Positions 4,763 through 54,358 of a stretch of DNA of 64,000 bases are shown here, piece by piece; within the stretch, counting starts at the first letter, position 1, and each line of letters opens with the position of its first letter. Both the position numbers and the translations under genes were made by a program. The stretch comes from an uncultured virus (IMG/VR IMGVR_UViG_3300001346_000004). Lineage: Duplodnaviria; Heunggongvirae; Uroviricota; Caudoviricetes. The DNA lies in the IMG/VR virus record IMGVR_UViG_3300001346_000004; one strand, written 5' to 3'. The notes under the pieces are model-generated. The model saw nothing but the letters and a program-made list of their open reading frames with translations, searched no databases and had not been told where the DNA came from.

Positions 4763-4764
4763 CT

Positions 4765-30138: not shown

Positions 30139-31728
30139 ATGGCAAAGAGTTTAGATGGCGTTCAGATTAAGAAAGCCCATGAAAAGCAAAAATATACACT
30201 AGAGGAAGTCAAGCACTTAGAGGCTTGTATGGATCCTATCACGGGTCCATTATACTTTTGTGAAAACTTTCTAACCATTCAACACCCTGTAAAAGGTTCA
30301 ATGAAGTTTGTACCTTATGGATTTCAACGAGAACTAATTCAAGCATATGCAGAAAACAGATACTGTGTTGCTATGCTACCAAGACAGATGGGCAAGACAA
30401 CCTGTGCTGCTGGATATTTATTATGGTATACAATGTTTACTCCTGAATCGCAGGTGCTAATTGCTGCACACAAATATACAGGTGCGCAGGACATCATGAA
30501 CAGATTTAGATACGGGTATGAAACATTGCCTGACTTTGTTCGTGCTGGTATCTATACATACAACAGAAACACAATTGAATTTGATAACGGCAGTAGAATA
30601 CAAGCAACAACCACAACAGAAGATACTGGACGTGGTAAATCACTTTCATTAATATACTGTGATGAGTTTGCGTTTGTGCAACCACCAGAAAAAGCCAAAG
30701 AGTTTTGGACTGCACTTTCTCCTACACTGTCAACAGGTGGTAAAGCGATTGTTACAAGCACACCAAACTCAGATGAAGATCAGTTTGCTATGATTTGGAC
30801 AGAAGCAAATAAAAAGTTTGACGAATTTGGTAATGACAACGTTGTAGGAACCAACGGCTTCTATCCTTATTTTGCTCCATGGACAGAGCATCCAGATAGA
30901 GATGATGCATGGGCAGCAGAAGAACGTTCCAAAATTGGAGACGAACGATTCCGTCGTGAGTTTGATTGCGAATTTTTAATCTTTGATGAAACATTAATTA
31001 ATAGTGTGAAACTTGCTGAACTTGAAGGCAAAGAACCAATTCAAAATATGGGGCAAACACGTTGGTATAAAAAAATTAATCCTAAAGCAACTTATTTGTT
31101 ATCACTTGATCCATCACTAGGAACTGGTGGCGACTACTCAGCCATACAGATATTTGAAATGCCTGCAATGGAACAGGTTGGAGAATGGAGACACAATCTT
31201 ACACCTATACAGCAACAGATAAGACATTTAAAGAGCATCTTAAAATACATTTATGATGAACAAACTGCCGGCGGCAATGCAAATCCTACAATATATTACA
31301 GTTGTGAGAATAACACCATAGGCGAAGCAGCATTAGTTGTTATTAAAGATATAGGTGAAGAAAACTTCCACGGGCTATTCCTAAGTGAACCTATGAGAAA
31401 AGGACATGTAAGAAAATTTAGAAAAGGATTTAACACCACACACAAAACAAAGATTACTGCCTGTAGCACTTTTAAAAATGCACTAGAAAGAAACAAGTTG
31501 AAGATTAATAGTAAACCGTTAATATCAGAGTTAAAGACATTTGTAGCACACGGTGTAGGATACGGTGCTAAAACAGGCGAACATGACGATTTAGTCAGTG
31601 CTTGCTTACTAATCATACGCATGGCAAGTCAATTGGCTGATTGGGATCCTAAAATATATGAAAAAATGACGGAGAGAATGACCGAAGACCAGTACCCAAT
31701 GCCTATATTCATAAGCGGCGGTTTTTGA
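30139..31728 (+). CDS. terL: Terminase large subunit (gp17-like)
   Basis: PRQMGKTT Walker A, LIYCDEFAFV Walker B, TSTPN, FRREF.CEF, LDPSLGTGGDYSA, HDDLV. Confidence 0.95.
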   Translation: MAKSLDGVQIKKAHEKQKYTLEEVKHLEACMDPITGPLYFCENFLTIQHPVKGSMKFVPYGFQRELIQAYAENRYCVAMLPRQMGKTTCAAGYLLWYTMFTPESQVLIAAHKYTGAQDIMNRFRYGYETLPDFVRAGIYTYNRNTIEFDNGSRIQATTTTEDTGRGKSLSLIYCDEFAFVQPPEKAKEFWTALSPTLSTGGKAIVTSTPNSDEDQFAMIWTEANKKFDEFGNDNVVGTNGFYPYFAPWTEHPDRDDAWAAEERSKIGDERFRREFDCEFLIFDETLINSVKLAELEGKEPIQNMGQTRWYKKINPKATYLLSLDPSLGTGGDYSAIQIFEMPAMEQVGEWRHNLTPIQQQIRHLKSILKYIYDEQTAGGNANPTIYYSCENNTIGEAALVVIKDIGEENFHGLFLSEPMRKGHVRKFRKGFNTTHKTKITACSTFKNALERNKLKINSKPLISELKTFVAHGVGYGAKTGEHDDLVSACLLIIRMASQLADWDPKIYEKMTERMTEDQYPMPIFISGGF

Positions 31729-31739
31729 TAAATAATAAT

Positions 31740-34688
31740 ATGGATGCAACCAACAACATTTCAACCGATCTGTTCTATAAAATTAGAAGTAGATTTACAG
31801 GTTTAAAACTAGGCGAATCAACAGGGCAAATTACAATTAACCCTGAAAATGCTCGTTTCTTTGATTTTGACTACATGGAAAACGATAAAAACATAGGGCA
31901 TGTAAGCATTAGTTTAGCAGAACCTAATTCAATGAAGGTATACTTTTCGAGTGGTATTACCGAAGGTATGGACCAAGATCAAAAAGGTAATTGGTACGCT
32001 TTCCTAAAAGAACTTAGAATGTTTGCAAAACGCAGACTATTGGCATTTGATACTAGAGACATTGCAAAGGATAATTTAGACAAACGTGATTATGCTTTCC
32101 TTAGTCAACACTCAACGCCACAATCGGATAACGATACAATAACTAAACCCGTCGGAGAAGCAGTAATGAATGAGAGTAATCTTTATGGAACGAAAACACA
32201 AAGTTTCCAAAAGTTGGAAGACACGAGATTAATTATTAAGCACAGCAAGAAACTTGCTGATGACTTTGAACAAAAACCAGGTGATAGAAGTAGAAATATT
32301 TCTGCACTATTTGTTGAGAACCAAGACGGTGAAAGATTTAAATATCCTTTTGTTCACTTAGCAGGTGCAAGAGCTATGCAGCGACATGTGGCTAACGGCG
32401 GGTTACCATATGATGCTATCGGCGAAAGCATTATTAAAACAAGCGAAGAAATTGCTCAACTAAAAAGTTTTACAAATTACTGTGTACGTAACGATTTAAT
32501 GAACTCCGACACTAATTCAATTGTTGAACGCAGCAAAGCACAGCTCAACGGGTTAAGAGAAAGAATTGCAAAATTATCTAAACAGGCACATTACGAAAAC
32601 TATGTAGCAGAATTCCAAGAGCCAGAGGCAATGGAAATACCAGATGATGTAATGAAAGAATACACAGAAAAATTTACAGTTAAAAACTTTAAAGAAGATA
32701 TTGCTAACGCATTTCCTATCATTTATAAATTAATGAAGGAAGAAGAAACTGTAGGCTATGACGACATAGTCGCAATGACAGGCATGGAAGATGCATTTGA
32801 TAAGGCAGATAGAATTACAGATCCAGAAGAACTTAATTTATTTGGTCCAGAAGACATAGAAAATAATAGTCAACTAAATGCAGAAGAACTTAAAGACGAG
32901 CTAGAAGGCGACATCTATCATTTAATGAATAAAGCCAGTGACGACTTTACTGACAATGATCATATTGCAGATGAAATGGGAGACCACTTTGCCAACATGC
33001 ATCTTAAAGCCGACGATAAAACATTAAGTTGTTATTCAGCGATGAGAGATATGATTGATGCAGATCCAGCAGACGTTTATGAGACAGGTAAGAAATGTCT
33101 TAAAATATTAGGTGCTCAAGAACATCAAGATCAGGAGCAAGGTAACAAAGGACCAAAAGGCCGTCCAGCCGCAGATGCTTATGCTGGTGGTATGGAAGGC
33201 TTTGCAAAGTTTGAAAATTGGGTTAATCAACTAGGCGAAGAATCTCCACTAACAACGGCAGACGAAGAACAAAAGTCAGACATGGTTAAAAAACTAAATG
33301 GAATGCTTAAGACAGAATTCCAAGCAGGCGTAGAAGGTATTAATGCTATTCAAAGTTTAGAAGGCATTATTGAAGATCCTAAACTAGAGCAAGATATTAA
33401 AAAGGCAGAGCCAGAAGCAGATGTTCGTCCTATGGTTAAGGCTTGGGTTGAAGAAAATGCACCAGACGTATTATCCGAATTAGATTTTGGTGATATGATT
33501 GATGAGCCAACAGCAGGCGCAGCCGAAGTTGAACCACAACAAGAAGAAGGTGTGACAAGTAAGTTTATGAAAGATCCATCAATGGGTATGAACAAGTATG
33601 GACTTGCTGCTATTCAAAAGGACGGTATGTTCTTTAGTATTAAAGATAAGAAAATTACAGGCGGACCATTTGACACTATTGATGAACTTAAAAAGCATCA
33701 AGAAGAATTAATGAACAAAGACTCCGATGATGACTACAAAGATACGCAACCAGAGTTAAAAGGTGGCGGTAGTGCATTCAAAGGTTTCAAAGGCAAAGAT
33801 CCTGAAGCAGATGAACTAAATGATATTATGAAACTGTCAGGCGAATCTTATAGCAAAACACAAGAAGCCGGTGGATATTATGGACAAATGAATGATCCAA
33901 TAATGTTTAAAGGCAAAGAAGTTGATATGGACAAACTAGATTACGACATGCAAGATGTTAGTGATGAGATGTTTAATGTAAATGCTCCTGTGTATTACAC
34001 AGACGGTACAGAAGTTGACTCCGGAGATATGGAAGAATTAGAAGGAATGGAAGAATTTCATATGTGGGTTATGCAAGATTATATGGACAATCAAGCACCA
34101 CAAGAAGGATCAGTTTCAGAAGGTGGTAATGCTTGGGATATGGCACTTACAGGTGGAATGGAAATTATTTCAAACTGTGATAGTGAAGAAGAATGCATTA
34201 AGCAACTAGAAGCAGAAATAACAGGCGGCAAAGATGCTGATGATGCATATGCTGATATGATTACCAAAGACTATATCGAAAAAATTAAAAAGCACGGACT
34301 TGAAAAAGTAAAACGTGATGTAGACGCTGAAGATGTAATGGGTGAGCCTGTTGATTTAGAAGGACAAGAAACTGAAGGAAACGAATACGGCGATAAAGTT
34401 TCGTCTCTTAAAGCACAAGGTGCTAAGAAAGGCACTAAGTTTAAAACATCAGATGGTGAAGAACACACATTAGAAGGTTTAGCAGAATTTATTAAATCTT
34501 TTTATGATAGTACTACAGGCACTTTTCCAAAAGGCCCAGAAGGTGTAGCAACAATGGTAGGCAAGAAGTTTGGTGAACAGGCTGAGCAGGTTGCACGTAA
34601 GATGGTAGAGAGAATGGCTCCTGCACAAGAACAAGGCGCAGACGAACTAGAAGAACTAGGTAGAATTAAAGATCTTATTAAATTTTAA
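31740..34688 (+). CDS. Large acidic protein, possibly prohead core/internal protein
   Basis: About 980 aa; ordered-looking N-terminal third (GERFKYPFVHLAGARAMQRH) followed by acidic modules. Start ATG 31740 follows TAAATA-N5. Confidence 0.6.
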   Translation: MDATNNISTDLFYKIRSRFTGLKLGESTGQITINPENARFFDFDYMENDKNIGHVSISLAEPNSMKVYFSSGITEGMDQDQKGNWYAFLKELRMFAKRRLLAFDTRDIAKDNLDKRDYAFLSQHSTPQSDNDTITKPVGEAVMNESNLYGTKTQSFQKLEDTRLIIKHSKKLADDFEQKPGDRSRNISALFVENQDGERFKYPFVHLAGARAMQRHVANGGLPYDAIGESIIKTSEEIAQLKSFTNYCVRNDLMNSDTNSIVERSKAQLNGLRERIAKLSKQAHYENYVAEFQEPEAMEIPDDVMKEYTEKFTVKNFKEDIANAFPIIYKLMKEEETVGYDDIVAMTGMEDAFDKADRITDPEELNLFGPEDIENNSQLNAEELKDELEGDIYHLMNKASDDFTDNDHIADEMGDHFANMHLKADDKTLSCYSAMRDMIDADPADVYETGKKCLKILGAQEHQDQEQGNKGPKGRPAADAYAGGMEGFAKFENWVNQLGEESPLTTADEEQKSDMVKKLNGMLKTEFQAGVEGINAIQSLEGIIEDPKLEQDIKKAEPEADVRPMVKAWVEENAPDVLSELDFGDMIDEPTAGAAEVEPQQEEGVTSKFMKDPSMGMNKYGLAAIQKDGMFFSIKDKKITGGPFDTIDELKKHQEELMNKDSDDDYKDTQPELKGGGSAFKGFKGKDPEADELNDIMKLSGESYSKTQEAGGYYGQMNDPIMFKGKEVDMDKLDYDMQDVSDEMFNVNAPVYYTDGTEVDSGDMEELEGMEEFHMWVMQDYMDNQAPQEGSVSEGGNAWDMALTGGMEIISNCDSEEECIKQLEAEITGGKDADDAYADMITKDYIEKIKKHGLEKVKRDVDAEDVMGEPVDLEGQETEGNEYGDKVSSLKAQGAKKGTKFKTSDGEEHTLEGLAEFIKSFYDSTTGTFPKGPEGVATMVGKKFGEQAEQVARKMVERMAPAQEQGADELEELGRIKDLIKF

Positions 34689-34729
34689 TGATTTTACGTA
34701 TTGATTTTATACGTAAAGATGTTTAAATA

Positions 34730-34764
34730 ATAGTGTAGTAGGAAACTGCTACACTATTTTTTTT
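34730..34764 (+). terminator. Hairpin plus U-tract upstream of pqqA
   Basis: ATAGTGTAGTAG-GAAA-CTGCTACACTAT (one G-U pair) running into a T8 tract. Confidence 0.7.
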
Positions 34765-34781
34765 ATATAAAGGAAATCAAT

Positions 34782-34853
34782 ATGTGGACAAAACCTCAAG
34801 CAATAGAGATGAGATTCGGCTTCGAAGTAACGATGTACATAGCCAACCGATAG
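34782..34853 (+). CDS. pqqA: Pyrroloquinoline quinone precursor peptide PqqA (23 aa)
   Basis: [24 protein letters not shown]-x-K-P start and R-x-G-F-E-V-T-x-Y core (Glu15/Tyr19); AAGGA RBS at 34770-34774. Confidence 0.92.
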
Positions 34854-34922
34854 ACAAAGAAGTAGAAGTAGAAGTAGAAGTAGATATGAGCAGACTAATA
34901 GAAACATTAGACTGCGAATAAA

Positions 34923-34949
34923 GAAAGGATCTTCGGATCCTTTCCTTTT
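34923..34949 (+). terminator. Intrinsic terminator closing the pqqA cassette
   Basis: GAAAGGATC-TTCG-GATCCTTTC followed by CTTTT. Confidence 0.85.
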
Positions 34950-34983
34950 GGCTAAACAAAATCACATTTAGTTAAAAATACAC

Positions 34984-35012
34984 TTGACAAGATAAATAAA
35001 GTTGCATATAAT
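34984..35012 (+). promoter_or_regulatory. Sigma70 consensus promoter for the ssb/uvsX operon
   Basis: TTGACA-17nt-TATAAT; a TAAATA also lies in the spacer. Confidence 0.8.
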
Positions 35013-35071
35013 AGTACGTATGCATAAGGCATAAATGACATTTAAATTAGGCAAACAAAGGAGGCTACAAA

Positions 35072-36070
35072 ATGGCATCATTAGCAGAGATCCGCGCAAA
35101 ACTAGCGGAACAACAAAATCGCTCATCTGGTAATTCTACTGGAGGCGGAGACAACGCAATTTACCCACATTGGAATATGCAAGAAGGCAAGGAAGCCGTG
35201 GTAAGATTCTTACCAGACGGTAACACTGACAACACATTCTTTTGGGTAGAACGTGCGATGATTAAATTACCTTTCGCAGGTATTAAAGGCGAATCAGATA
35301 ACCGTAACTTAATTGTGCAGGTTCCATGTGTGGAAATGTACAACGATGGTACTACTTGTCCGATTCTAACAGAAGTACGTCCATGGTTTAAAGATAAGAG
35401 TCTTGAAGATATGGGTCGTAAGTATTGGAAAAAGCGTTCTTACATTTTCCAAGGCTTTGTAAACGAAGATCCGATTGGTGAGGATTCAACTCCAGAAAAT
35501 CCAATTAGACGTTTTATTATTGGTCCACAAATTTTCCAAATTATTAAGGGTGCATTAATGGATCCTGAATTGGAAGAATTGCCAACTGATTTTATGAAGG
35601 GTGTAGACTTTAGAATCAAGAAAACTTCTAAAGGTGGTTATGCTGATTATTCAACATCACAGTGGTCACGTAGAGAGCGTGCATTGAGCGATGAAGAAAA
35701 AGCAGCAGTTGACTCAAACGGTGTGTTTAACTTGTCAGACTTCCTTCCTAAGAAGCCAGGCGAAGTTGAACTTAAAGTAATGAAAGAAATGTTCGAAGCA
35801 TCAGTAGATGGTGAAGCATACGATATGGACAGATGGGGACAATACTTCCGTCCAGCGGGTGTGTCACAACGTACAGGTGATCCAAACAAAGCTCAAAGTA
35901 CTCCAGCGGCAACACCAGCGCCAGCGGCGGCACCTGCTCCAGTAGCAGAAACTGCTCCGGCTCCTGCAGCAACTACAGCACCAGTGGCTGAAGCGGCTCC
36001 AGCAGAAGGTGGCGACAGTGCTAACAGAGCACAGGACATTTTAGCAATGATCCGTAATAGACAACAATAA
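35072..36070 (+). CDS. Single-stranded DNA-binding protein (T4 gp32-like)
   Basis: AVVRFLP, C..CPI, YWKKRSY, GVDFRIKK, GGYADYSTS; Ala/Pro-rich linker tail; AGGAGG RBS. Confidence 0.88.
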   Translation: MASLAEIRAKLAEQQNRSSGNSTGGGDNAIYPHWNMQEGKEAVVRFLPDGNTDNTFFWVERAMIKLPFAGIKGESDNRNLIVQVPCVEMYNDGTTCPILTEVRPWFKDKSLEDMGRKYWKKRSYIFQGFVNEDPIGEDSTPENPIRRFIIGPQIFQIIKGALMDPELEELPTDFMKGVDFRIKKTSKGGYADYSTSQWSRRERALSDEEKAAVDSNGVFNLSDFLPKKPGEVELKVMKEMFEASVDGEAYDMDRWGQYFRPAGVSQRTGDPNKAQSTPAATPAPAAAPAPVAETAPAPAATTAPVAEAAPAEGGDSANRAQDILAMIRNRQQ

Positions 36071-39181: not shown

Positions 39182-40510
39182 ATGTGCGGATTTGCAGCCA
39201 CAAATTATAGTGATCCGATAACCTCAAATAAACATTGTCAGAACCGAGGTCCTGACATGACTACTGCTGAAAAAATCCGTGGAGTATATTATCTACATAA
39301 TTTGTTACATATTACAGGTGAGTTGACTCCTCAACCGTTAATAAAAGATGATGTAGTATGTGTCTTTAACGGAGAAATTTATAATTATACATCATTTGGA
39401 AATTATAATAGTGACAGTGAATGTATTATAGATCTATATAATACTAAAGGCGAACATTTTGTAAAAGATTTAGACGGAGAATTTGCATTATGTTTAATTG
39501 ATTACAAGAAACAAAAACTAATTATTTCTGTAGATACTTTTAGTTGCAAACCACTTTGGTATGAAATGAGAGACGATAAATTTTGTATTGCATCATACAA
39601 TAGTCAACTAGATGGATTAGGATTTAAGAATGGCAAAAAACTTAAATCAAATACAACACTTGTTTTTAATTTATCTACACTAACACAACTTACTAGTTAT
39701 GAAAACAGAACATTTGATATAAAACAGCACAAAACAACATTTGACGATTGGTTAACAGCATTTAGTAATAGTATTCGTAAACGAACTGCAAATACAAAAC
39801 AAGGTATGTTTGTAGGTTTAAGTTCAGGTTATGACAGTGGTGCTATAACCTGTGAGCTAGAAAAACAAAATGTTTCCTTTAAAACATATTCCATACTTAA
39901 TACAGAAAATCCTAAAATTATGGAAAGAAGATTAAAACTAGTTACTAATGCAGAAGCATTTAATCTTACTACAGACGAATACAATCATTGGCAACAAGAG
40001 CTAGATAATAACTGCGAAGATTTTATTTACGGCACTGGCAAAAAGAAATATAACATAAAAGAAGATCAAGCATCAAAAGGCCTAGCAGCAATTTGTCATA
40101 GGGCTAATAAAGAGAAAAGAAAAATTTATTTCTCAGGACAGGGTGCAGATGAAATTATAAGTGATTACGGATTTGGTGGGGTTAAGAAATATAAACACAG
40201 CGGCTTCGGTGGACTTTTCCCTGAAAGTTTAGATGGATTCTTTCCTTGGCAAAGTTTTTATGACGGAACACAAATAAAATATCTTAATAAAGAAGAATAT
40301 GTAGCAGGACATTTTGGAGTTGAAACTAGATATCCATTCCTTGATAATGACTTAGTACAAGAATTCCTTTGGTTATCTCCTGCATTAAAAAATAGTGTAT
40401 ATAAAAGTTGTTTACACGAATACCTTACTAGAAACAATTTTCCTTTTAAACCTTCTGAAAAGAAAGGGTTTAATGTTGGACAAAAAAAGAAAAAGCACAA
40501 AACTCTTTAA
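39182..40510 (+). CDS. Asparagine synthetase-like glutamine amidotransferase (AsnB family)
   Basis: MCG N-terminal Cys, RGPD, FNGEIYN, LDGEFA, LSSGYDS, SGQGADE, ETRYPFLD. Confidence 0.88.
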   Translation: MCGFAATNYSDPITSNKHCQNRGPDMTTAEKIRGVYYLHNLLHITGELTPQPLIKDDVVCVFNGEIYNYTSFGNYNSDSECIIDLYNTKGEHFVKDLDGEFALCLIDYKKQKLIISVDTFSCKPLWYEMRDDKFCIASYNSQLDGLGFKNGKKLKSNTTLVFNLSTLTQLTSYENRTFDIKQHKTTFDDWLTAFSNSIRKRTANTKQGMFVGLSSGYDSGAITCELEKQNVSFKTYSILNTENPKIMERRLKLVTNAEAFNLTTDEYNHWQQELDNNCEDFIYGTGKKKYNIKEDQASKGLAAICHRANKEKRKIYFSGQGADEIISDYGFGGVKKYKHSGFGGLFPESLDGFFPWQSFYDGTQIKYLNKEEYVAGHFGVETRYPFLDNDLVQEFLWLSPALKNSVYKSCLHEYLTRNNFPFKPSEKKGFNVGQKKKKHKTL

Positions 40511-40546
40511 TTTTATCTCCCATTAACTACGCACATAAATACTACT

Positions 40547-41323
40547 ATGAAAACCATAGTATTAGTAACAGGTGGGTTCGACCCACTGCATAGTGGACAC
40601 ATTGAATATTTCAAAGCAGCAAAAGAACTAGGAGACGAACTAGTTATTGGATTAAATTCTGATGAATGGCTGACTCGTAAAAAAGGCAGACCATTTATGA
40701 CATTCAAAGACAGGTGTGCTATTATCAACAGTTTAGAAGTTGTTGATAGAGTATTGTCATTTAATGACGATGACGATAGTGCATGTGGTGCAATATATAA
40801 ACTAATGGCGACAACAGCAGATTGTAATTATGTTTTTGCTAATGGTGGTGACAGGACAGATTTAACGACACCTGAGAGCAAAATTTACGGCGATCATCCT
40901 AATATAGAATTTGCATTTGGTGTTGGTGGTACAAACAAAATGAATTCAAGTAGTTGGATTCTAGACGAATGGAAGACACAAAAGACAGAAAGAGATTGGG
41001 GATATTGGAGAGTGTTAGATCACAATCCAGAAGCAGGATACAAAGTAAAAGAGCTTGTAATATATCCAGGTAAAAGTTTAAGCGACCAAAAACATTTTAA
41101 GAGATCAGAAGTTTGGTCAATACTTCAAGGTGTTGTAAAAATTAAAACAGAATGGGATAATAGAGTAGATGATGTGCATTTATTACCACATACAAGATCA
41201 TATGAAATAGATAAAGAAGTTTGGCATCAAGCAAGTAACCCTGGCGGTGTGAATGCACATGTGTTAGAGATACAATGGGGCAGCGAATGTATAGAAGAGG
41301 ATATAGAAAGACGTGAAACGTAA
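40547..41323 (+). CDS. Cytidylyltransferase-family nucleotidyltransferase fused to C-terminal cupin (mannose-6-phosphate isomerase type II-like)
   Basis: TGGFDPLHSGH, LNSDEWLTRKKG, FANGGDR, NSSS; then RDWGYW, LSDQKHFKRSEVW, LEIQWG..EEDIER. Confidence 0.85.
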   Translation: MKTIVLVTGGFDPLHSGHIEYFKAAKELGDELVIGLNSDEWLTRKKGRPFMTFKDRCAIINSLEVVDRVLSFNDDDDSACGAIYKLMATTADCNYVFANGGDRTDLTTPESKIYGDHPNIEFAFGVGGTNKMNSSSWILDEWKTQKTERDWGYWRVLDHNPEAGYKVKELVIYPGKSLSDQKHFKRSEVWSILQGVVKIKTEWDNRVDDVHLLPHTRSYEIDKEVWHQASNPGGVNAHVLEIQWGSECIEEDIERRET

Positions 41324-42116
41324 TTGGATTTTTATAAGCAAAGGTAATCAAGACCCTTATATAAATGACTTTGCAAGAGGTTGTGGTGTAATGACTGTAG
41401 ACTCTAACAACTTTGATTATGACGCTTCTGAAGATCCAATTGTATTACGAGGTATTCTAAAAAAGAAATGGATACGTAAATGCTGGAAAGATGGTAGAGA
41501 TTTTTATTATATGGATACAGGATACTTTGGTAATGAACAAACAATAAGTAATCCTAATGGTTGGAAGTATTGGCACAGAATTGTTAAAAACGATTTACAA
41601 CACAACGATATAATAAAACGCCCTTCTAACAGATTTGATTCGTTTAAAAAAAAGTTTAACCCGTGGAAGAAAGACGGAAGAAAAATTTTAATTGCAGCAC
41701 CCGACGAAAAACCAATGAAGTTTTATGAAAAAGATTTAGAACAGTGGATAGAAGATACAACTGCTGAATTAAAAAAGCATACCGATAGACCTATAGAAAT
41801 AAGATCAAGAAGTAAAAATAGGATAGATAGAGTTGTAACCGATACTCTACAACAAGCACTAGATGATGATGTATACGCACTAGTTACATTTAATAGTAAT
41901 GCTGCTGTAGAATCAGTATTTCATGGAATACCAGTATTTCCGTTAGCACCTACAAGTGCTGCTTCTCCTGTCGGTTCAAAAGATTTATCTCAAATAGAAA
42001 ATCCGTACTACCCGGACAAAGATAAATTATACGAATGGGGTTGTCATTTGGCTTACGGACAATTTCATATGAGTGAGTTAAAAACAGGTAAGGCTAGAAG
42101 GATATTAGAACAATGA
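41313..42116 (+). CDS. Capsule-synthesis-like (GT-B) protein, paralogue 1
   Basis: YMDTGY, WHRIVKN, VTFNSNAAVESVFHGIP, LAYGQF..E..G.A. Confidence 0.55.
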   Translation: MKRNWIFISKGNQDPYINDFARGCGVMTVDSNNFDYDASEDPIVLRGILKKKWIRKCWKDGRDFYYMDTGYFGNEQTISNPNGWKYWHRIVKNDLQHNDIIKRPSNRFDSFKKKFNPWKKDGRKILIAAPDEKPMKFYEKDLEQWIEDTTAELKKHTDRPIEIRSRSKNRIDRVVTDTLQQALDDDVYALVTFNSNAAVESVFHGIPVFPLAPTSAASPVGSKDLSQIENPYYPDKDKLYEWGCHLAYGQFHMSELKTGKARRILEQ

Positions 42117-42793
42117 AAGTATTTGTAGGATACGATACAAGAGAAGATATTGCATATCAAGTATGTAAGCACAGCATTATTGCAAGAAGTAAAGAGGCTG
42201 AAGTAATTCCTCTTAAACAACAAGAACTAAGAGATGCAGGATGGTACAAAAGACCCATTGATAAATTAGCATCAACAGAATTTACGTTTACAAGATTTTT
42301 GATACCAGAACTAACTAACTTTAAAGGTTGGGCAGTGTTCATGGACAGTGACATGATATTAACAACAGATATTGCAGAACTGTTTGAACAAGCAGATGAC
42401 AAGTATGCTGTTATGTGTGTACAACATGATTATAAAGTAACTGAAACTACAAAGATGGATGGTCAAAAACAAACAATCTATCCACGTAAGAATTGGAGCT
42501 CGATGGTATTATGGAACTGTGGACACCCTAGTAACAAAGTTGTTAATCAAGACTTTGTAAACGAAACTGAACTCAACGGAGCATATATGCATCGCTTTAG
42601 TTGGTTAAAAGATGAAGAAATTGGTAGCATTGATCACACATGGAACTATCTAGTAGGTGTATATGATGATATTGAAAAACCAAAACTAATTCATTACACA
42701 GAAGGTGGACCGTGGTTTGAAAATTATAGAGACTGTGAATTTCATGCTGAATGGAAAAATGAATTATTTAATATGATGGAAGACGAGGTTTAA
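42113..42793 (+). CDS. GT-A glycosyltransferase (GT8-like)
   Basis: VFVGYDTRE, STEFTFTRF, FMDSDM, YPRKNWSS, WNYLVG, HYTEGGPW. Confidence 0.8.
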   Translation: MKVFVGYDTREDIAYQVCKHSIIARSKEAEVIPLKQQELRDAGWYKRPIDKLASTEFTFTRFLIPELTNFKGWAVFMDSDMILTTDIAELFEQADDKYAVMCVQHDYKVTETTKMDGQKQTIYPRKNWSSMVLWNCGHPSNKVVNQDFVNETELNGAYMHRFSWLKDEEIGSIDHTWNYLVGVYDDIEKPKLIHYTEGGPWFENYRDCEFHAEWKNELFNMMEDEV

Positions 42794-43572
42794 TGGCAAA
42801 CAAACTTAGTTTAGAAGAATCACTAGTTATAGGTTCTGGCGGTAAGTTAACTACAGACCCTAAAGATACTTCTAAACCTCTTGTTGTTAGAGGCGTAATA
42901 AAAAAAGATCATGTAAATGCATGCATCAAAGCAGGCAGAGATTTTTACTATATTGATACAGGCTATCTTGGTAACTTTGTTAGTAAAGGAAATCCAAGCG
43001 GTAAAAAACTTTGGCACAGAGTAGTTAAAAACGAAAACCAGCATTCTAAAATAAGAAATGTTCCAACTGACAGATGGCAGAAACTACTAGAACAAGATCC
43101 TAGTCTTAGTTGGTCTGGATGGAAAAATAATAACAAGAAAATTTTATTAGTTTTACCTAACCCCAAAGCATGTAGATATTATGGAATAGATTATGATACG
43201 TGGGTAAAAGAAACTACTTCAAATATTGAAAAGTATAGCAACTTACCAATTGAAGTAAGAGTAAAAGGATCAAGATCCGCAAGAGTAAAAGAATACACAA
43301 TATACGATGCTTTAGACAGCGGAACATATGCAACAGTAACTATGAATAGTATGGCTGCAATGGAATCTGTAGTACATGGTGTTCCTGCATTTGTAAGTGT
43401 TCCGTGTGCCGCAAGTCCTTTAGCATCGCATAACATTGAAGATTTATCAAACCCATTTAAGCCAACCCAACAAATAATTGAACAACAATGTGCAAGTCTA
43501 GCCTACGGGCAGTTTACTATTGAAGAAATAGAAAACGGTACAGCATACGAACTAACGGAAGAATATTCATGA
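42793..43572 (+). CDS. Capsule-synthesis-like (GT-B) protein, paralogue 2
   Basis: YIDTGY, WHRVVKN, VTMNSMAAMESVVHGVP, LAYGQF..E...G.A. Confidence 0.55.
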   Translation: MANKLSLEESLVIGSGGKLTTDPKDTSKPLVVRGVIKKDHVNACIKAGRDFYYIDTGYLGNFVSKGNPSGKKLWHRVVKNENQHSKIRNVPTDRWQKLLEQDPSLSWSGWKNNNKKILLVLPNPKACRYYGIDYDTWVKETTSNIEKYSNLPIEVRVKGSRSARVKEYTIYDALDSGTYATVTMNSMAAMESVVHGVPAFVSVPCAASPLASHNIEDLSNPFKPTQQIIEQQCASLAYGQFTIEEIENGTAYELTEEYS

Positions 43573-44711
43573 AACTTTTATTAAACAATAAAGAAATTGC
43601 AAATTTTTTAATAAGTTTAATAAATTTGGAAAAGCAAGTAGCAAAAAGAATTGATGAAGTAACAGATTTTAATTTGAACGAAGTTACTAACGCATTTGCA
43701 GAAAGAGAGTCAGAACGTAAACGTCGTGCTATGTTAAAAGGACAAGATTTTATTCCACCAAAAGATCATATAGATGATGCTGGCAAGAACAAACTCTACG
43801 AAAAAATATTTAAAGGTGTAAGTAGAGATCTAGAGTTATATGTTAGAACTATAAAAGAAGAAAGAGGAAAAACTAAACAAGATATATTTCACGGAGTTCA
43901 CAGCAATATAGAAACATTTATAGAAAGATTAGGTAAAGAATATATTTTACAAAAGTATCAAAAAAGCCCTTATAAAGATTTTGTAAAAGGTACAGGTAAT
44001 ACGTTAACAAAGAACCCTCAACTAATAAGAAGAAAAGAGTTTAAAAACTACAAAGAAGATTGCTTAATTAGGAATACTGTAGGTAATGAAGAACTATTAG
44101 TAACGAAAATTGATAAACAATATCCTATGTGGTTTATAGATAGTGGTTATACAAATTTTCTAGAACCAAATAAAAAATGGCATAGACTAGTTCGTAATCA
44201 TATGCACTTTGGTAAATCATTTGATGCACCTACAAGTAGATTGAAGAACTTTCCTATTTTTCCTGTGCCGTGGCGCAAGAATGGTGAGATAATTTATGTG
44301 ATAGAACCTGGACCATTTGCAGCAAATGTTTTTCATATAAATTTAAAAACATGGAAGTATGATGTTGCTAAAGAATTAAGAAAATACACAGACAAACGTA
44401 TTGTATTTAGAAAGAAAGCACCTCTTAGACAGCGTCCTAAGTTGATTAAGCAGTTATTAGACGAGGATTATTGTTGTGTAGTAAGTATTAATAGTAATGC
44501 TGCTACAGAAGCAATATGGGCTGGTATACCTGCAATAACATTAGGAACACATATAACTAATCCTGTAACTAGAAACAAACTTAGTGATATAAACGACCTA
44601 TATTATGGAGATATATCTAAATGGTTGTGCATGCTAAGTTATAGCCAGTTTACCAAAGAAGAACTAATAAATGGAACAGCAAAAAGGATAGTTGATAAGT
44701 ATCATGGCTAA
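43569..44711 (+). CDS. Capsule-synthesis-like (GT-B) protein, paralogue 3, with N-terminal extension
   Basis: FIDSGY, WHRLVRN, VSINSNAATEAIWAGIP, LSYSQF..E...G.A. Confidence 0.55.
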   Translation: MKLLLNNKEIANFLISLINLEKQVAKRIDEVTDFNLNEVTNAFAERESERKRRAMLKGQDFIPPKDHIDDAGKNKLYEKIFKGVSRDLELYVRTIKEERGKTKQDIFHGVHSNIETFIERLGKEYILQKYQKSPYKDFVKGTGNTLTKNPQLIRRKEFKNYKEDCLIRNTVGNEELLVTKIDKQYPMWFIDSGYTNFLEPNKKWHRLVRNHMHFGKSFDAPTSRLKNFPIFPVPWRKNGEIIYVIEPGPFAANVFHINLKTWKYDVAKELRKYTDKRIVFRKKAPLRQRPKLIKQLLDEDYCCVVSINSNAATEAIWAGIPAITLGTHITNPVTRNKLSDINDLYYGDISKWLCMLSYSQFTKEELINGTAKRIVDKYHG

Positions 44712-45621
44712 TTTTACAGCAGTGGCATATTTTGGAGGTATTCCTCCTAATAACAATAATCCAGAAAAACCGTTAATACTTAATAACTTCCTACAAGGAG
44801 TACAAGTAACTGGTGATCGTGCAATTGCACATCAGGGTTTCAATACTATTGATTGTGATGTTGCACTTATACAAGGATTTGTTCATGAACACGGTAAGAC
44901 AGCACCGCACTTGCAGTTGCGACAGCGTGCAGTAGAACAACAGAAACAAACAGGTAAAAGAAGTTTGATAGTTGATAGTAATTTATTTCTTTATGCTGAT
45001 CCTGGCAATACTAAACACTACCTAAGATATAGTTTTGACGGAGTATTTCCTACTACGGGTTATTATTTTACTGAAGAAGTTGATCCGACACGTTGGCAAA
45101 AGATTAGTGCTAATCTCGGACTTAGTTTAAAACCATATAGAAAAACTGGTAATCATATACTAGTATGTTGTCAACGCAACGGTGGGTGGAGCATGAAAGG
45201 TATTCCTGTACAAAACTGGTTAGATCAAACTATCAAACAAATACAAACGTTCACTGATAGACCTATTGTTGTAAGGCCTCATCCTGGTGATAAGAAATGG
45301 CGTAACTATCTTTTACTTAACAAGTATAAAAATGTTACATTAAGCACACAACATGTACTACAGGATTTACAAAATGCTTGGGCAACAGTATTGCACAATA
45401 GTAGTCCAGCAGTTGCAAGTTCAATTGAAGGTGTACCTGTATTTTTAACTAATGCTCAAGAAAGCCAAGCAGCAGATGTTTGTAATACTAATCTAAAAAG
45501 TTTAGAAGATCCAAAAATGTTTGATAGACAAGCATGGATTGAAAAACTTTCTATGTGTCATTGGAATTTTGATGAATTAAGATCCGGTGAAGCCTGGCAG
45601 TTTTTTAGAAAATTTATTTAA
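44704..45621 (+). CDS. Capsule-synthesis-like (GT-B) protein, paralogue 4
   Basis: RPIVVRPHP, LHNSSPAVASSIEGVP, WIEKLSMCHWNFDELRSGEAW. Confidence 0.55.
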   Translation: MANFTAVAYFGGIPPNNNNPEKPLILNNFLQGVQVTGDRAIAHQGFNTIDCDVALIQGFVHEHGKTAPHLQLRQRAVEQQKQTGKRSLIVDSNLFLYADPGNTKHYLRYSFDGVFPTTGYYFTEEVDPTRWQKISANLGLSLKPYRKTGNHILVCCQRNGGWSMKGIPVQNWLDQTIKQIQTFTDRPIVVRPHPGDKKWRNYLLLNKYKNVTLSTQHVLQDLQNAWATVLHNSSPAVASSIEGVPVFLTNAQESQAADVCNTNLKSLEDPKMFDRQAWIEKLSMCHWNFDELRSGEAWQFFRKFI

Positions 45622-48996: not shown

Positions 48997-50437
48997 GTTA
49001 ATTATAAAAGACGAAGTAAACGTAAAGTTTGAAGGACTTGCTGTTGAAACACGCAGAAAGATTGTAAACAAACTTAAATTTGATTTACCTTATGCACGTC
49101 ATATGCCTGCCTTTAAACTAGGCAGATGGGACGGCACTGTCAGTTTCTTTGGTATTGGTGGTAATGGATTTGTAGCACATCTTGACATTGCATTGCCTAT
49201 AGTTGAAGAGTCAGGATATGATATAGAAGTAATAGATCAGCGCAATCCTACTAAATTAGACTTTGAGAAAATTACAGAAAATTATTGGGCCGACCAAGGT
49301 ATATGTTGGCCAGAAGGACATGCTGAAGCAGGCAAGCCTGTTATTCTTCGTGATTATCAATATGATGTAGTTAACAAGTTTTTAGAAAATCCACAAAGTT
49401 TACAAGAAGTAGCAACTGGCGCAGGTAAAACAATTACAACTGCTACCCTTTCGCATCTATGCGAGCCTTATGGTCGTACAATGGTTATTGTGCCAAATAA
49501 AAGTCTTGTTGTGCAAACTGAAGAAGATTATAAAAACTGTGGATTAGATGTAGGTGTATATTTTGGTGATAGAAAAGAATTAAATCATACACATACTATT
49601 TGTACATGGCAAAGTCTTAATGTGTTAGATAAGAAAAAACATGATACTGATAGCCTAACACTTGCTGAATTTACTGAAGGAGTAAGTGCAGTAATCATAG
49701 ATGAAGTGCATCAAGCAAAAGCAGACGTACTGAAAAAACTACTTACCGTAAACTTTCGTAATGCTCCTATACGTTGGGGACTAACTGGTACAGTGCCTAA
49801 GGAAAAGTGGGAGTTTCAAGGCATACTTGCAGGAATTGGTCCTGTAATTAATAACGTATCGGCACACGACTTGCAGGAACGAGGTGTGTTGGCAAAACTT
49901 GATATACAAATTGTACAAACAAAAGACATTGAAGAATTTAGAAATTATCAAGAAGAATATACATGGTTAGTTACAGATGAAAAGCGATTAACATATATTA
50001 GCAATCATATTAAGAAAGTTGCAAACAACGGTAATACACTTGTACTTGTAAACAGAATAGACACAGGTAATAAGTTAATAAAAAATATACCAGATGCTAC
50101 ATTTATCAAAGGGGATGTAAAACTTGATGACCGTAAAGAACAATATGACGAAATTAAAACAAGTGATGGCAAAATCATTGTTGCTACTTACGGAGTTGCC
50201 GCTGTGGGTATTAACATTCCTAGGATTTTTAACCTTGTTCTTATTGAGCCTGGTAAGTCTTTTGTTCGTGTTATTCAGTCAATTGGCCGCGGTATACGGA
50301 AAGCAGAGGACAAAGATTTTGTCCAGATTTGGGATATAACTTCTACTTGTAAATATGCAAAAAGACATCTTACAGAAAGAAAAAGATTTTACAGAGAAGC
50401 AAAATATCCACACTCAGTAACAAAGGTAGATACATGA
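48986..50437 (+). CDS. uvsW: SF2 helicase UvsW-like
   Basis: GRWDG, LRDYQ, ATGAGKT, IIDEVH, GLTGT, VGINIPR, QSIGRGIR. Confidence 0.9.
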   Translation: MNCKLIIKDEVNVKFEGLAVETRRKIVNKLKFDLPYARHMPAFKLGRWDGTVSFFGIGGNGFVAHLDIALPIVEESGYDIEVIDQRNPTKLDFEKITENYWADQGICWPEGHAEAGKPVILRDYQYDVVNKFLENPQSLQEVATGAGKTITTATLSHLCEPYGRTMVIVPNKSLVVQTEEDYKNCGLDVGVYFGDRKELNHTHTICTWQSLNVLDKKKHDTDSLTLAEFTEGVSAVIIDEVHQAKADVLKKLLTVNFRNAPIRWGLTGTVPKEKWEFQGILAGIGPVINNVSAHDLQERGVLAKLDIQIVQTKDIEEFRNYQEEYTWLVTDEKRLTYISNHIKKVANNGNTLVLVNRIDTGNKLIKNIPDATFIKGDVKLDDRKEQYDEIKTSDGKIIVATYGVAAVGINIPRIFNLVLIEPGKSFVRVIQSIGRGIRKAEDKDFVQIWDITSTCKYAKRHLTERKRFYREAKYPHSVTKVDT

Positions 50438-50970
50438 AAGTAAGCAACGACATAAAGATAAAACATGATGTAAAATTTACATCAGTTACTAGCGGAACAA
50501 GAGAGCACTTTGTTTCAGATATTGTAAAGAATAATAACTTAAAATTAGGTGCAGAAATAGGCGTACGAACAGGCAAAACAACTTTTCACATTTTAAATAA
50601 TAATGTACAGTGTGAAATGTATGCAATAGACAAAGATATAAACCAATTCTTTAATAATAATGTAAAAGAAAAATACGGTTACCGTTTAAAAACATACGAA
50701 ACAGATAGCAGAGTATCTCCAGATTTTGTCGAAGATTATTCTTTAGACTTTTTCTTTATCGATGCTTCGCACACATACAAAAACGTTAAAAAAGATTTAC
50801 AAGCCTGGTTACCTAAACTTAAACCTACAGGTTGGATGATGGGTCATGATATCGATTATCCATCTGTAGAAGCAGCAGTAAAAGATGTTATAGGATACTA
50901 CGAAGTTGGTCCTGATAATGTTTGGTTTGCCAAACAAGACAAGGTATACACAGGAATACAGGAGAACTAA
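50434..50970 (+). CDS. SAM-dependent methyltransferase (Methyltransf_24-like)
   Basis: GAEIGVRTG, LDFFFIDASHTY..VKKD..W.PKLK..G.M.GHD. Confidence 0.8.
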   Translation: MKVSNDIKIKHDVKFTSVTSGTREHFVSDIVKNNNLKLGAEIGVRTGKTTFHILNNNVQCEMYAIDKDINQFFNNNVKEKYGYRLKTYETDSRVSPDFVEDYSLDFFFIDASHTYKNVKKDLQAWLPKLKPTGWMMGHDIDYPSVEAAVKDVIGYYEVGPDNVWFAKQDKVYTGIQEN

Positions 50971-51476
50971 TGAGAATATTAACCTTAGAGAACAAAGCAT
51001 TTGACTTGAATGAATTGCCAGAAGAAGTTGAAGCAGATGCTAGATTTAGTGTGTTGGATAATTCGGATCCTAAGAATCCGGACTTCTTTTTCCAACCACT
51101 TATATTTTTAGAATCATTTAACAGCCCAGCCATACTGATGAAAATTGGTGGGCATGAAGTTAAGATGCCTTTAGATTGGTCAATACTAGTTGGAGATAGT
51201 GAAAGCGGGTCTGACCCAGAAATATTGCCGCTTACATCTATCAACGAAAGAGGATTTGAAGCATTTGTTTTTAATCCAATTAAAGGATATAAATTAGATT
51301 ATACTGATATAGAAATAATTAACATCTATCAAGATGTTAGATGGTATTTTCCTAAAATGAAAAACGGACAATTACTATCAGTACCACTACACAACGAGTA
51401 CAACCCACCATGTGCATTTTTTGTAAAAGAAATAAGCAGACAATCAGAAATAGTTTCTGTGGGAGATTTGATGTGA
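50970..51476 (+). CDS. Hypothetical protein
   Basis: TAATG-coupled start with AGGAG RBS; beta-rich composition. Confidence 0.65.
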   Translation: MRILTLENKAFDLNELPEEVEADARFSVLDNSDPKNPDFFFQPLIFLESFNSPAILMKIGGHEVKMPLDWSILVGDSESGSDPEILPLTSINERGFEAFVFNPIKGYKLDYTDIEIINIYQDVRWYFPKMKNGQLLSVPLHNEYNPPCAFFVKEISRQSEIVSVGDLM

Positions 51477-51512
51477 TAAGTATTGATAACGCCGAAAAGA
51501 AAAGGAAGGTAT

Positions 51513-51881
51513 ATGACTATGAAAGCAGGTAAAATATGGGGACAAACAGAACTCATTCATGCGAACGGTGTACTAGAGTTTCATCGTATTGAATATAAAG
51601 CAGGTTATAAATGTTCAGAACACGAACATCAATATAAATGGAACGGATTCTTTGTTGAATCGGGCAAGATGATTGTACGTGTTTGGCAAGATGCTGATCA
51701 AGAAGGACTAGTAGATGAAACTATTCTCGAAGCAGGTGAATTCACACAGGTAAAGCCAGGAAAGATACATCAGTTTGAAGGACTAGAAGATGGAGTTGCT
51801 TTTGAATTGTACTGGGCTGAATTTAATCATGACGATATTGTTAGACGCACTGTCGGAACTAAAATTAAAGGTAACAAATGA
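51513..51881 (+). CDS. Stand-alone cupin protein
   Basis: GKIWG, CSEHEHQYKWNGFFVESG, VKPGKIHQF, DDIVR. Confidence 0.8.
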   Translation: MTMKAGKIWGQTELIHANGVLEFHRIEYKAGYKCSEHEHQYKWNGFFVESGKMIVRVWQDADQEGLVDETILEAGEFTQVKPGKIHQFEGLEDGVAFELYWAEFNHDDIVRRTVGTKIKGNK

Positions 51882-52639
51882 AAGTAGGAATAATAGGTTA
51901 CGGTTGGATAGGAAAGGCAACACAAAAACTCTTTCCAGATGCACAAGTATATGACAAATATATAGAAGGGTATACGAAACCTTTAGAAAATTGTGACATT
52001 GCATTTCTTGCTGTACCTACTCCATGGAATCAAGGAGACGGACTAGATTGTTCTGCTGTAGAAGATGCAATAGCAACATGTGGTGCTGACTTTATTGTAA
52101 TTAGAAGTGCAACACAGCCAGGATTTGCAGACGAAATGGTTAAGAAATACAAAAAGAAAATAGTTGTACAACCAGAATACCTAGGCGAAACACCTAATCA
52201 TCCTTTCTTACAGATGGATTCAAGACAGTTTATGATTATAGGCGGTGAAGCAGAAGATAGAAGAAAAGTTATTGAATGCTATCAACAAGCCTACAATGCA
52301 AACGTCACTATTAGACAAGTAACAAGATACGAAGCAGAAATTATTAAATTTACAGAAAATCGTGCAATATTTTACAAGGTTATGCAGTGTCAAGAACTGT
52401 ATGATGCATGTGAAGCAGCAGGAGTAGATTACTACACAATACGTGATGCAGTTTACGGTGACGACCCAAGACAAAACTTATGGTTCAGTTTTGTGTTTCC
52501 TAAAAATAGAGGAGCCAACAGTAAATGCATTCCTAAAGACATTTACGGATGGTGTGCATGGGCAGAAAGCGTTGGTGTTGATCCTAAAGCAACAAAATCT
52601 TTACTAGAATACAATCAGTTTTTGCTCGGCAAAGATTAA
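51878..52639 (+). CDS. UDP-glucose/GDP-mannose dehydrogenase family protein (short form)
   Basis: VGIIGYGWIG, FLAVPTP, IRSAT.PG, PEYL, AEIIK..EN, D.R, SKCIPKD. Confidence 0.8.
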   Translation: MKVGIIGYGWIGKATQKLFPDAQVYDKYIEGYTKPLENCDIAFLAVPTPWNQGDGLDCSAVEDAIATCGADFIVIRSATQPGFADEMVKKYKKKIVVQPEYLGETPNHPFLQMDSRQFMIIGGEAEDRRKVIECYQQAYNANVTIRQVTRYEAEIIKFTENRAIFYKVMQCQELYDACEAAGVDYYTIRDAVYGDDPRQNLWFSFVFPKNRGANSKCIPKDIYGWCAWAESVGVDPKATKSLLEYNQFLLGKD

Positions 52640-52645
52640 TCAGAA

Positions 52646-53275
52646 ATGATTAATAAAATTACCACAGTTATAGCAGGCGATGCAAATTTTAAAAAATATG
52701 TAGACAAAGCAGTTGCATATTCTAAAAATGTTGGATATGATCCTGTAGTTTATGATTTAGGCGGACTAGGTTACGGAACTCCTTTCAATGCAAGGGTAAG
52801 TCCTAAAGTCGGAGCAAAAATACCGTCGAAACCAGGCCTAATTATGGAAACTTTGAAGACTGTCAACGACGGCGATTACGTTGTGTGGCTAGATGCTGAC
52901 GCACTTATAGAACAACCTATAGATGAAATAATGTTTGACTATGATATAGGTGTTACAGTAAGACAACCTAAACAAATTGAAAATAGTTTGCCTATAAATG
53001 CAGGAATAGTGTTTGTAAGAAAAACAAAGGCTGCTTTAGACTTCGTAGAACGATGGATGACACTGTGTGAGACAGGTATAAGCGACCAACAAGAACTAAA
53101 CAAGTTGTGCAAAGTAACAACTGAACATACAGACACCACAGTAATTAGAGGATACGTAAGAATACGTGTGTTTCCTTGTAAAATCTATAATAATTTTTAT
53201 TTTGCAAAAAAGAAAGTACCGCATGCAAAAATAAAACATTATAAAAGTAAACTAAGACATCTTTGGCCGGAGTAA
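52646..53275 (+). CDS. Nucleotide-diphospho-sugar transferase (GT-A)
   Basis: KPGLI, VVWLDADA, INAGIVF, SDQQELN. Confidence 0.75.
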   Translation: MINKITTVIAGDANFKKYVDKAVAYSKNVGYDPVVYDLGGLGYGTPFNARVSPKVGAKIPSKPGLIMETLKTVNDGDYVVWLDADALIEQPIDEIMFDYDIGVTVRQPKQIENSLPINAGIVFVRKTKAALDFVERWMTLCETGISDQQELNKLCKVTTEHTDTTVIRGYVRIRVFPCKIYNNFYFAKKKVPHAKIKHYKSKLRHLWPE

Positions 53276-53277
53276 AC

Positions 53278-54099: not shown

Positions 54100-54128
54100 T
54101 TGACAAACACTCTTTGTCATGTTAAAAT
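54100..54128 (+). promoter_or_regulatory. Sigma70-type promoter containing an inverted repeat
   Basis: TTGACA-17nt-TAAAAT; TGACAAA-cactc-TTTGTCA palindrome overlaps the -35 box. Confidence 0.65.
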
Positions 54129-54160
54129 AAAAGAGTAAATTTAACTAAAAGGAGAAGGTA

Positions 54161-54358
54161 ATGCTTCATAAAATTAGTCAAATGTGTGATAAAGTTAATG
54201 TTATGTACGATAAGTCCATGGTACTTAGACGTCTGAAATACGACACTCCAAAAGATCAAAGAGACAACGATCAAATAGATATGTTGGTTCAAGACATACA
54301 AGCACTAGCACGTGATATTGCAAATGACCAGTCGCCATATACAAAGTTGGATGACTAA
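54161..54358 (+). CDS. Small hypothetical protein
   Basis: AAGGAG RBS; downstream of a promoter. Confidence 0.7.
   Translation: MLHKISQMCDKVNVMYDKSMVLRRLKYDTPKDQRDNDQIDMLVQDIQALARDIANDQSPYTKLDD

Follow-up and report, generated by a model that had tools for sequence, protein, structure and literature searches.

PqqA is a small peptide of ~20–40 residues whose conserved Glu and Tyr (E-x-x-x-Y) are cross-linked by PqqD/E. It is consumed stoichiometrically, and the resulting PQQ is the cofactor of methanol dehydrogenase. The locus studied here consists of a 23-codon ORF within 64,000 nt of uncultured Caudoviricetes DNA, and we refer to this whole stretch as the window. The initial annotation had read the ORF as an orphan pqqA that feeds the PQQ machinery of the host, with a decoy role as the alternative.

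A PqqA-type ORF between structural and replication genes

PHROG and Pfam scans identified the window as DNA of a T4-type, jumbo-like myophage that encodes tail sheath and tube, head closure and the tail-sheath stabiliser gp15. The nearest relatives of its TerL are PA5oct-type jumbo phages (53%), followed by Phosso and Atu_ph07. Since CheckV rates related contigs of 33.6, 101.9 and 117.8 kb as 9%, 28% and 33% complete, respectively, genomes near 360 kb are implied. Public runs that contain the window number 20 and come from 11 studies; their label is marine metagenome or, in one case, viral metagenome. The phage is a marine T4-type myophage, probably of the jumbo class (~360 kb). No tRNA was found in the window, and there was no integrase among its genes in the PHROG and Pfam scans.

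The Pfam scan also revealed unusually many sugar-nucleotide and modification genes in four blocks of the window (2936–10161, 39182–45621, 50434–56300 and 59798–61270). These comprise two carbamoyltransferases, five 2OG-Fe(II) oxygenases, epimerases, cytidylyltransferases, a PfkB kinase, an asparagine-synthase-like enzyme, glycosyltransferases and a subtilase domain in an 834-aa protein.

The ORF had been placed between the packaging and replication modules, and the scans agree with this. The TerL gene (30139–31728) and a 987-aa structural gene precede it, and gp32, UvsX, UvsY, helicases and a primase follow. Homologues of the 987-aa gene also sit 5' of pqqA in related contigs. Both in the window and in its relatives, pqqA is flanked by phage genes on either side, and is therefore a host-type metabolic gene within a phage genome. 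The features of the locus are as follows.

31725–34688, + strand: gene for the 987-aa virion structural protein (phrog_13484, E 1.7e-10), directly 5' of pqqA
34693–34717, + strand: inverted repeat, 9 bp and perfect, TTTACGTAT / ATACGTAAA with a 7-nt loop, within a block conserved with the relative L029
34729–34758, + strand: terminator-like hairpin of 13 pairs with a T run after it, just 5' of the pqqA ribosome site
34770–34774, + strand: Shine-Dalgarno-like AAGGA, 7 nt 5' of the pqqA ATG
34782 (ATG)–34853 (TAG), + strand: pqqA, 23 codons, with Glu15 and Tyr19 (E-x-x-x-Y), matched by the PF08042 and TIGR02107 profiles
34858–34884, + strand: perfect tandem repeat of AGAAGT (period 6, 4.5 copies) between pqqA and the mini-ORF, length-polymorphic
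34886–34921, + strand: mini-ORF of 11 codons, MSRLIETLDCE (consensus M-[SQHR]-R-L-[ILV]-E-T-[LQ]-D-C-E)
34923–34944, + strand: terminator-like hairpin of 9 pairs, GAAAGGATC-TTCG-GATCCTTTC, closing the pqqA/mini-ORF unit
34984–35012, + strand: perfect sigma-70-type promoter for gp32, TTGACA-17-TATAAT (12/12 matches), belonging to the next transcription unit
35072–36070, + strand: gene for a gp32-type ssDNA-binding protein (phrog_1192, E 1.2e-63), the 3' neighbour

We compared the 23-residue peptide with two PqqA profiles. Pfam PF08042 matched with 43 bits (cut-off 21.1, E 4e-11, profile positions 1–19 of 19) and the NCBIfam equivalog TIGR02107 with 41.4 bits (cut-off 20, E 9e-11, positions 1–21 of 21), so that both scores are about twice the cut-off across the full length of the model. 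The E15-V-T-M-Y19 motif is intact. A WTKP leader motif aligns to the start of both models; the N-terminal leader of PqqA is recognised by PqqD, and the W-x-K-P region belongs to the family models. A PDB sequence search with the peptide gave no match at E ≤ 10. Judged by its sequence, the ORF at 34782–34853 is a real PqqA.

The ORF had also been credited with a ribosome-binding site and a terminator of its own. The first is present as AAGGA, and relatives carry AGGAG or AAGGAG at the equivalent position. The second holds in part: a hairpin does lie downstream, at 34923–34944, but it is shared, with the tandem repeat and the 11-codon ORF lying in between. This hairpin is kept in L029, and other relatives have a different GC hairpin after the mini-ORF instead. 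Upstream, the block that holds the inverted repeat is nearly invariant in the alignment of the window with L029, and the stem of the 34729–34758 hairpin differs in that relative. Two terminator-like sites were observed in the scan, against 0.5 ± 0.7 expected from shuffles. A promoter scan recognised no sigma-70-like promoter 5' of pqqA. The conserved TGTTTAAATA upstream of the gene is not enriched in the window (15 matches vs 22.4 expected).

An Rfam search matched the marine RNA motif IMES-4 at 34706–34776, over the full model and covering the hairpin before pqqA. At 29.1 bits (E 0.017), this is below the gathering threshold of 48. We consider the match unsupported, and a larger Rfam search did not find IMES-4 in the relatives. 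Further downstream, the gp32 promoter is invariant in L029, and the window and L029 agree more closely over the promoter and gp32 leader (34950–35071) than over the coding DNA on either side. T4 gp32 has an autoregulatory leader, and by analogy the leader at 34950–35071 may be autoregulatory as well.

An orphan gene under purifying selection

The initial annotation had noted that pqqB-E are missing from the window. A Pfam scan of its 60 ORFs bore this out, with no match to PqqB, PqqC, PqqD, PqqE or PQQ-dependent dehydrogenases. Likewise, six-frame tblastn searches of the whole window with PqqB/C/D/E returned nothing at E ≤ 1e-3. The queries came from a Methylophilus operon and were validated as Lactamase_B_2, PQQC, PqqD and rSAM+SPASM proteins. 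Used against the 124 other viral pqqA loci (680 kb), they again gave nothing at E ≤ 1e-3.

The same check was extended to five related contigs (348 kb in total), which carry one pqqA apiece. PqqB, PqqC, PqqD and PQQ_2 had no match in these contigs, and the PqqE model yielded only generic radical-SAM matches of 14–18 bits vs a cut-off of 381. Neither the window nor these 348 kb yielded a PQQ-dependent dehydrogenase. Phage pqqA thus showed no genomic linkage to pqqBCDE in the window, the 124 viral loci or the five contigs. Such linkage is not obligatory, as many bona fide bacterial pqqA copies are unlinked too.

We then asked how the ORF varies among 22 pqqA copies (11 DNA versions) that were found via the neighbouring mini-ORF and not via pqqA. 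Across the 11 versions, nine pqqA codons vary only synonymously, with silent changes between GAA/GAG, CGT/AGA, TTT/TTC, GGT/GGC, GTA/GTT, ACA/ACG and TAT/TAC, in three Pro codons and in the stop codon. Residue changes are limited to positions 3, 4, 6, 7, 8, 20, 21 and 23. The variable core codons show synonymous change only in all 22 copies, and Glu15 and Tyr19 are never replaced. This substitution pattern shows that pqqA is under purifying selection and is not a decaying fragment.

The same pattern bears on the possibility that the real gene is an overlapping 45-codon ORF in another frame (34784–34921), with pqqA being accidental. The gaps between pqqA and the mini-ORF (5, 8, 11, 26 and 32 nt; window 34886–34921 and loci L254–L274) all keep one frame relation. 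In 11/11 cassette versions, no stop interrupts the overlapping frame between the GTG at 34784 and the end of the mini-ORF, which fits a longer gene; the residues that this frame encodes, however, are not conserved. Between window-type and L029-type sequences the PqqA core is 100% conserved, whereas the overlapping frame changes at most positions, and both PqqA models match strongly. We rejected the 45-codon ORF on the substitution pattern and regard it as highly improbable.

Phage and bacterial copies of pqqA

Next, we looked for pqqA in other phages. A blastn search with the window region matched the pqqA part only in MEP401, MEP402, Venkman and the podovirus MW202481, at 79–82% identity. A tblastn search with the peptide, which does not depend on any sequence pattern, returned 12 records at E ≤ 10 from a set of 50,697 phage records. 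It uncovered an intact pqqA in 10 true phage records: MEP401, MEP402, Venkman, four Melnitz isolates, MEP301, P19250A (a freshwater LD28 phage) and MW202481. All of these copies are intact ORFs, and those of the cultured phages have 23–25 residues and the core of the window peptide. The remaining two matches are titled 'Acinetobacter phage MD-2021a'; the one that we opened (L253, CAKLQF020000010.1) is bacterial chromosome at the match, with ppk, pqqB, pqqC, pqqD and a PqqE-like gene. The phage set leaves out HIM624-A, phiMB624-A, MEP431–434, Venkman EXVC038S, MG-MTP1 and RSA-MFP1 (names from the NCBI taxonomy). Because these further named phages lie outside it, we do not claim that all Methylophilales phages carry pqqA. 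When the Venkman locus was used as a megablast query, it matched no further record of that phage, and a literature search for MEP431 turned up no paper.

The gene is unannotated in every cultured-phage record that we opened. The records of Melnitz and MW202481 have an opposite-strand 'hypothetical protein' CDS called over pqqA. In Melnitz MZ577097.1 (L250), pqqA lies at ~76134–76208, just 5' of tRNA-Leu and overlapped by this CDS. Its position differs between phages: in Venkman, MEP301 and P19250A it has recombination genes nearby, in MEP401 it is close to the end of the record, and in Melnitz it lies upstream of the gp5 region with a small ORF on one side and tRNA-Leu on the other. All of these cultured phages (Venkman, Melnitz, MEP301, MEP401/402 and P19250A) share the PqqA core with the window but are other phage types with other insertion sites, and they do not have the 11-codon partner ORF.

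Among uncultured viruses, a pattern for the exact core matched at least 120 IMG/VR contigs with phage neighbours. The ORF is intact at 23–25 residues in 124/124 viral loci, which encode 45 distinct peptides. Its commonest neighbours are a RecE-like exonuclease (32 loci), Sak or Erf annealing proteins and endolysins; others that are common include a replication initiator, primase-helicase, DNA polymerase, head, portal, RegA, clamp loader, Hsp20 and GroES. These loci are several kinds of phage context and not misfiled pqq operons.

Within the group of the window phage the gene is rare. Its gp32 family is very large and uncultured (593 relatives among 600 IMG/VR matches listed). The best 80 listed relatives (loci L276–L355) are 66–85% identical to the window gp32, and 74 of them have at least 400 nt of upstream sequence. 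Because only three of these 74 carry pqqA at this site, we regard it as an accessory insert of a sub-clade. This rarity, together with the scattered orphan pqqA copies of host genomes that could be captured, would suit a neutral passenger that plays no part in infection, whether as a chance host fragment or as a site of recombination or attachment. A passenger would not, however, be expected to remain intact in all 124 viral loci with synonymous substitutions only in its core, to have its own ribosome site, or to recur at different sites in unrelated lytic-type lineages. We consider this explanation quite unlikely. The attachment-site variant is ruled out by the full-length ORFs, the lack of an integrase among the window genes and the lytic-type lineages.

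To place the peptide among bacterial ones, we used degenerate DNA pattern scans. These demanded the exact 11-residue core and are biased to the Methylophilaceae type, so they cannot show that the core is conserved. The scans found at least 125 bacterial stretches, including duplicate loci of one contig. By hand count, 94 of the 125 listed matches are titled Methylophilaceae, Methylophilales or genera within (Methylotenera, Methylophilus, Methylobacillus, Methylovorus, Pseudomethylobacillus, Novimethylophilus, Ca. Methylopumilus and the OM43 clade). Of the others, 27 have higher-rank labels only and four are Acidovorax (two), Rhodocyclaceae and Pseudomonadales. The resemblance of the core to Methylophilaceae PqqA, as proposed in the initial annotation, is thereby confirmed.

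Bacterial Methylophilaceae PqqA has the same length and core as the phage peptide, and many of the peptides encoded by viruses have identical counterparts in bacteria; the two that are most frequent in viruses are, letter for letter, also the two most frequent in bacteria. The variant in the window was seen only in the near-identical record G001. A nearest-neighbour comparison gave closest bacterial peptides that are 20/23 identical, in MAGs labelled 'beta proteobacterium' or 'Burkholderiales'. The OM43 single-cell-genome type is 17/23 identical, and the window peptide departs from it at residues 6–8 and in its tail (IANR). The window variant (Q6, I8, tail IANR) occurs in none of the bacterial loci retrieved. 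Bacterial pqqA is also often unlinked to pqqBCDE, as at the Ca. Methylopumilus locus L163, but the window copy is phage-encoded and sits between structural and replication genes.

Host genomes themselves carry surplus pqqA. We found it above cut-off in 101/101 genomes of the Ca. Methylopumilus family, with 1–12 matches apiece. Sixteen family genomes of 1.2–1.4 Mb have two or three pqqA each, and three streamlined genomes each combine a single above-cut-off PqqE with three pqqA. For Lake Washington Methylophilaceae, a published account gives 3–12 pqqA copies vs a single pqqBCDE set (PMC4109929). Amplification of pqqA only, even in 1.3-Mb genomes, would be expected if precursor supply limits PQQ.

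An OM43-like, PQQ-using host had been suspected for this phage. All 10 true phage matches are Methylophilales or Methylophilaceae phages or the uncultured podovirus, and the marine metagenome runs and the 32–39% GC content of the window give further backing. On these comparisons, pqqA was most likely derived from the host, and the host is most likely a marine, OM43-like methylotroph of the Methylophilaceae.

The match to host peptides also weighs on the decoy alternative, according to which the phage peptide would occupy host PqqD/PqqE without yielding PQQ and so shut down cofactor synthesis. Leader positions 6–8 and the tail are indeed unlike those of the commonest host peptides. A decoy, however, needs no cross-linked residues, and purifying selection acts on Glu, Tyr and the core as a whole. 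Moreover, many viral copies are identical to host copies, and the hosts multiply pqqA themselves. A decoy role is therefore very unlikely.

The two-peptide cassette and the proposed role of phage PqqA

Alignment of the window with L029 revealed the mini-ORF downstream of pqqA as conserved. In 21/21 IMG/VR contigs that match the mini-ORF pattern, pqqA ends 5–32 nt 5' of it. The gap is 32 nt in the window and 26 nt in the close relative L272, which has one repeat unit fewer; the AGAAGT repeat is absent from the diverged L029-type relatives. The mini-ORF has seven DNA versions. Five of its codons vary silently only (Arg AGA/CGT, Leu CTA/TTG/CTT, and also Thr, Asp and Cys), and residues change only at positions 2, 5 and 8. 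The pattern was found in 0/201 host-family genomes. Among pqqA loci it occurs in 4 of 269 instances, all of the window's lineage, and is absent from the other pqqA loci.

The cassette occurs in two contexts. Six of the 21 loci share that of the window, with the 987-aa gene, cassette and gp32 in this order. The other 15 have no match to the window 987-aa protein, gp32 or UvsX, and the annotated loci among them have a prohead protease, phrog_10922 and the major head protein, followed by the cassette. Contig G003 encodes a gp32 that is 72% identical to that of the window, ~56 kb away from its pqqA/mini-ORF cassette. Given the two contexts and this distance in G003, pqqA and the mini-ORF have moved as a unit.

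Known RNA motifs follow the cassette in relatives with the head-gene context (L256 3071–3653; L264 2845–3341; L255 341–388; L260 2857–2940). These are a glutamine riboswitch aptamer (50–51 bits, gathering 35), a freshwater-2 RNA (up to 76.6 bits, gathering 49.9) and a manA RNA just below threshold.

We tentatively suggest that pqqA is a convergently acquired hallmark gene of Methylophilaceae phages, and that in the jumbo T4-like lineage of the window it has become part of a mobile two-peptide cassette whose 11-residue peptide (M-x-R-L-L-E-T-Q-D-C-E) aids or regulates maturation of the precursor. This is a doubtful but possible extension of the data. If true, pqqA would be usable as a host marker that has been overlooked since gene callers skip 23-codon ORFs, and the cassette would be a viral two-peptide module without a host counterpart.

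Alternatively, PqqA and the phage-only 11-residue peptide may serve a phage-directed modification, for example by a radical-SAM/SPASM enzyme, with a product other than host PQQ. The tie between the mini-ORF and pqqA in all 21 contigs and both contexts agrees with this, as does the lack of mini-ORF matches in the 201 host-family genomes. Moreover, three radical-SAM ORFs, one of them with SPASM, lie side by side in the related contig G002 (L275, G002:C1:7000-15000). This cluster, however, is separated from pqqA by ~59 kb and has FemAB-like and glycosyltransferase-like ORFs next to it. It scores 14–18 bits vs the PqqE cut-off of 381, and Pfam found no radical-SAM gene in the window. Most phage pqqA copies, including those of Melnitz, Venkman and the MEP phages, come without the mini-ORF, and viral peptides are often identical to host ones. 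We consider a separate modification pathway unlikely.

The reading that we favour, based on the sequence comparisons above, is that pqqA is probably an auxiliary metabolic gene (AMG) that feeds a consumable precursor to host PqqBCDE. The phage would make the 23-residue precursor inside the infected cell. Glu15 and Tyr19 of this peptide would be cross-linked by host PqqD/PqqE, and the remaining steps to PQQ would fall to host PqqB/PqqC and peptidases. With one PqqA spent per PQQ, the extra template would raise or maintain the amount available of the single stoichiometric substrate. PQQ-dependent methanol dehydrogenase (XoxF/MxaF type) and the energy supply could then be sustained as host transcription falls. 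Expression of pqqA, its processing by host enzymes and a benefit to the phage are the parts of this scheme that we infer.

Public RNA data touch on the first of these. Contigs from two RNA libraries of one study span the whole 4 kb evenly together with the flanks, which may reflect DNA carry-over. The T-run hairpin immediately 5' of the pqqA ribosome site and the failure of the scan to recognise a promoter there count against the favoured reading. Two other RNA runs cover parts of gp32 and UvsX and not pqqA, a gap that is uninformative. In the head-gene context, the position of the cassette directly behind the major head gene suggests late co-transcription.

The concept of a viral PqqA is already in print. 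Lake Baikal viruses VP_266/VP_139 were described as T4-like, with ~35% GC and a predicted Methylophilaceae host; a viral methanol dehydrogenase was reported with them, and their PqqA was interpreted as an AMG that supports methanol oxidation (Coutinho et al. 2020, PMC7678222). That paper also cites the PQQ chemistry. The window phage resembles these viruses in being T4-like, in GC content, in the host and in carrying PqqA as a putative AMG, and radical-SAM genes occur both in a Baikal virus and in a relative of the window phage (PMC7678222). The Baikal viruses, however, are freshwater and were reported with a viral methanol dehydrogenase (PMC7678222), whereas the window phage is marine, and the searches of the window and of 348 kb of related contigs gave no PQQ-dependent dehydrogenase. 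The likeness is one of description only. Viral pqqA, pqqD and pqqE also appear among the AMGs of a 2026 sediment study (PMC13188868). The window thus adds a marine, jumbo-type case.

In the accessible text of the Melnitz paper PQQ figures only as a medium ingredient, with no mention of pqqA, and that of the MEP401/402 paper mentions neither pqqA nor PQQ. We found no report linking pqqA to OM43 phages in the paper texts searched. Within this literature, the breadth of pqqA across cultured Methylophilaceae phages and the two-peptide cassette appear to be new.

The proposed role has a parallel in cyanophage psbA, an AMG that resupplies a fast-consumed host component while the rest comes from host machinery. 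By analogy, the phage would bring only the consumable part in both cases; psbA encodes a protein subunit, whereas the product of pqqA is a 23-residue RiPP precursor that is destroyed in cofactor synthesis. Because pqqA occurs in phages that are in culture together with the bacteria they infect, namely Venkman, Melnitz, the MEP phages and P19250A, the proposal is directly testable. That the gene is unannotated in each cultured-phage record opened indicates that very small AMGs are systematically missed. A new lead comes from the partner ORF of 11 conserved codons. The methanol dehydrogenases of OM43 and related Methylophilaceae depend on PQQ, and these bacteria connect methanol from phytoplankton with the marine carbon cycle. 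Were it routine for phages to bring their own PqqA, the supply of precursor would be a point at which the energy metabolism of infected methylotrophs is controlled.
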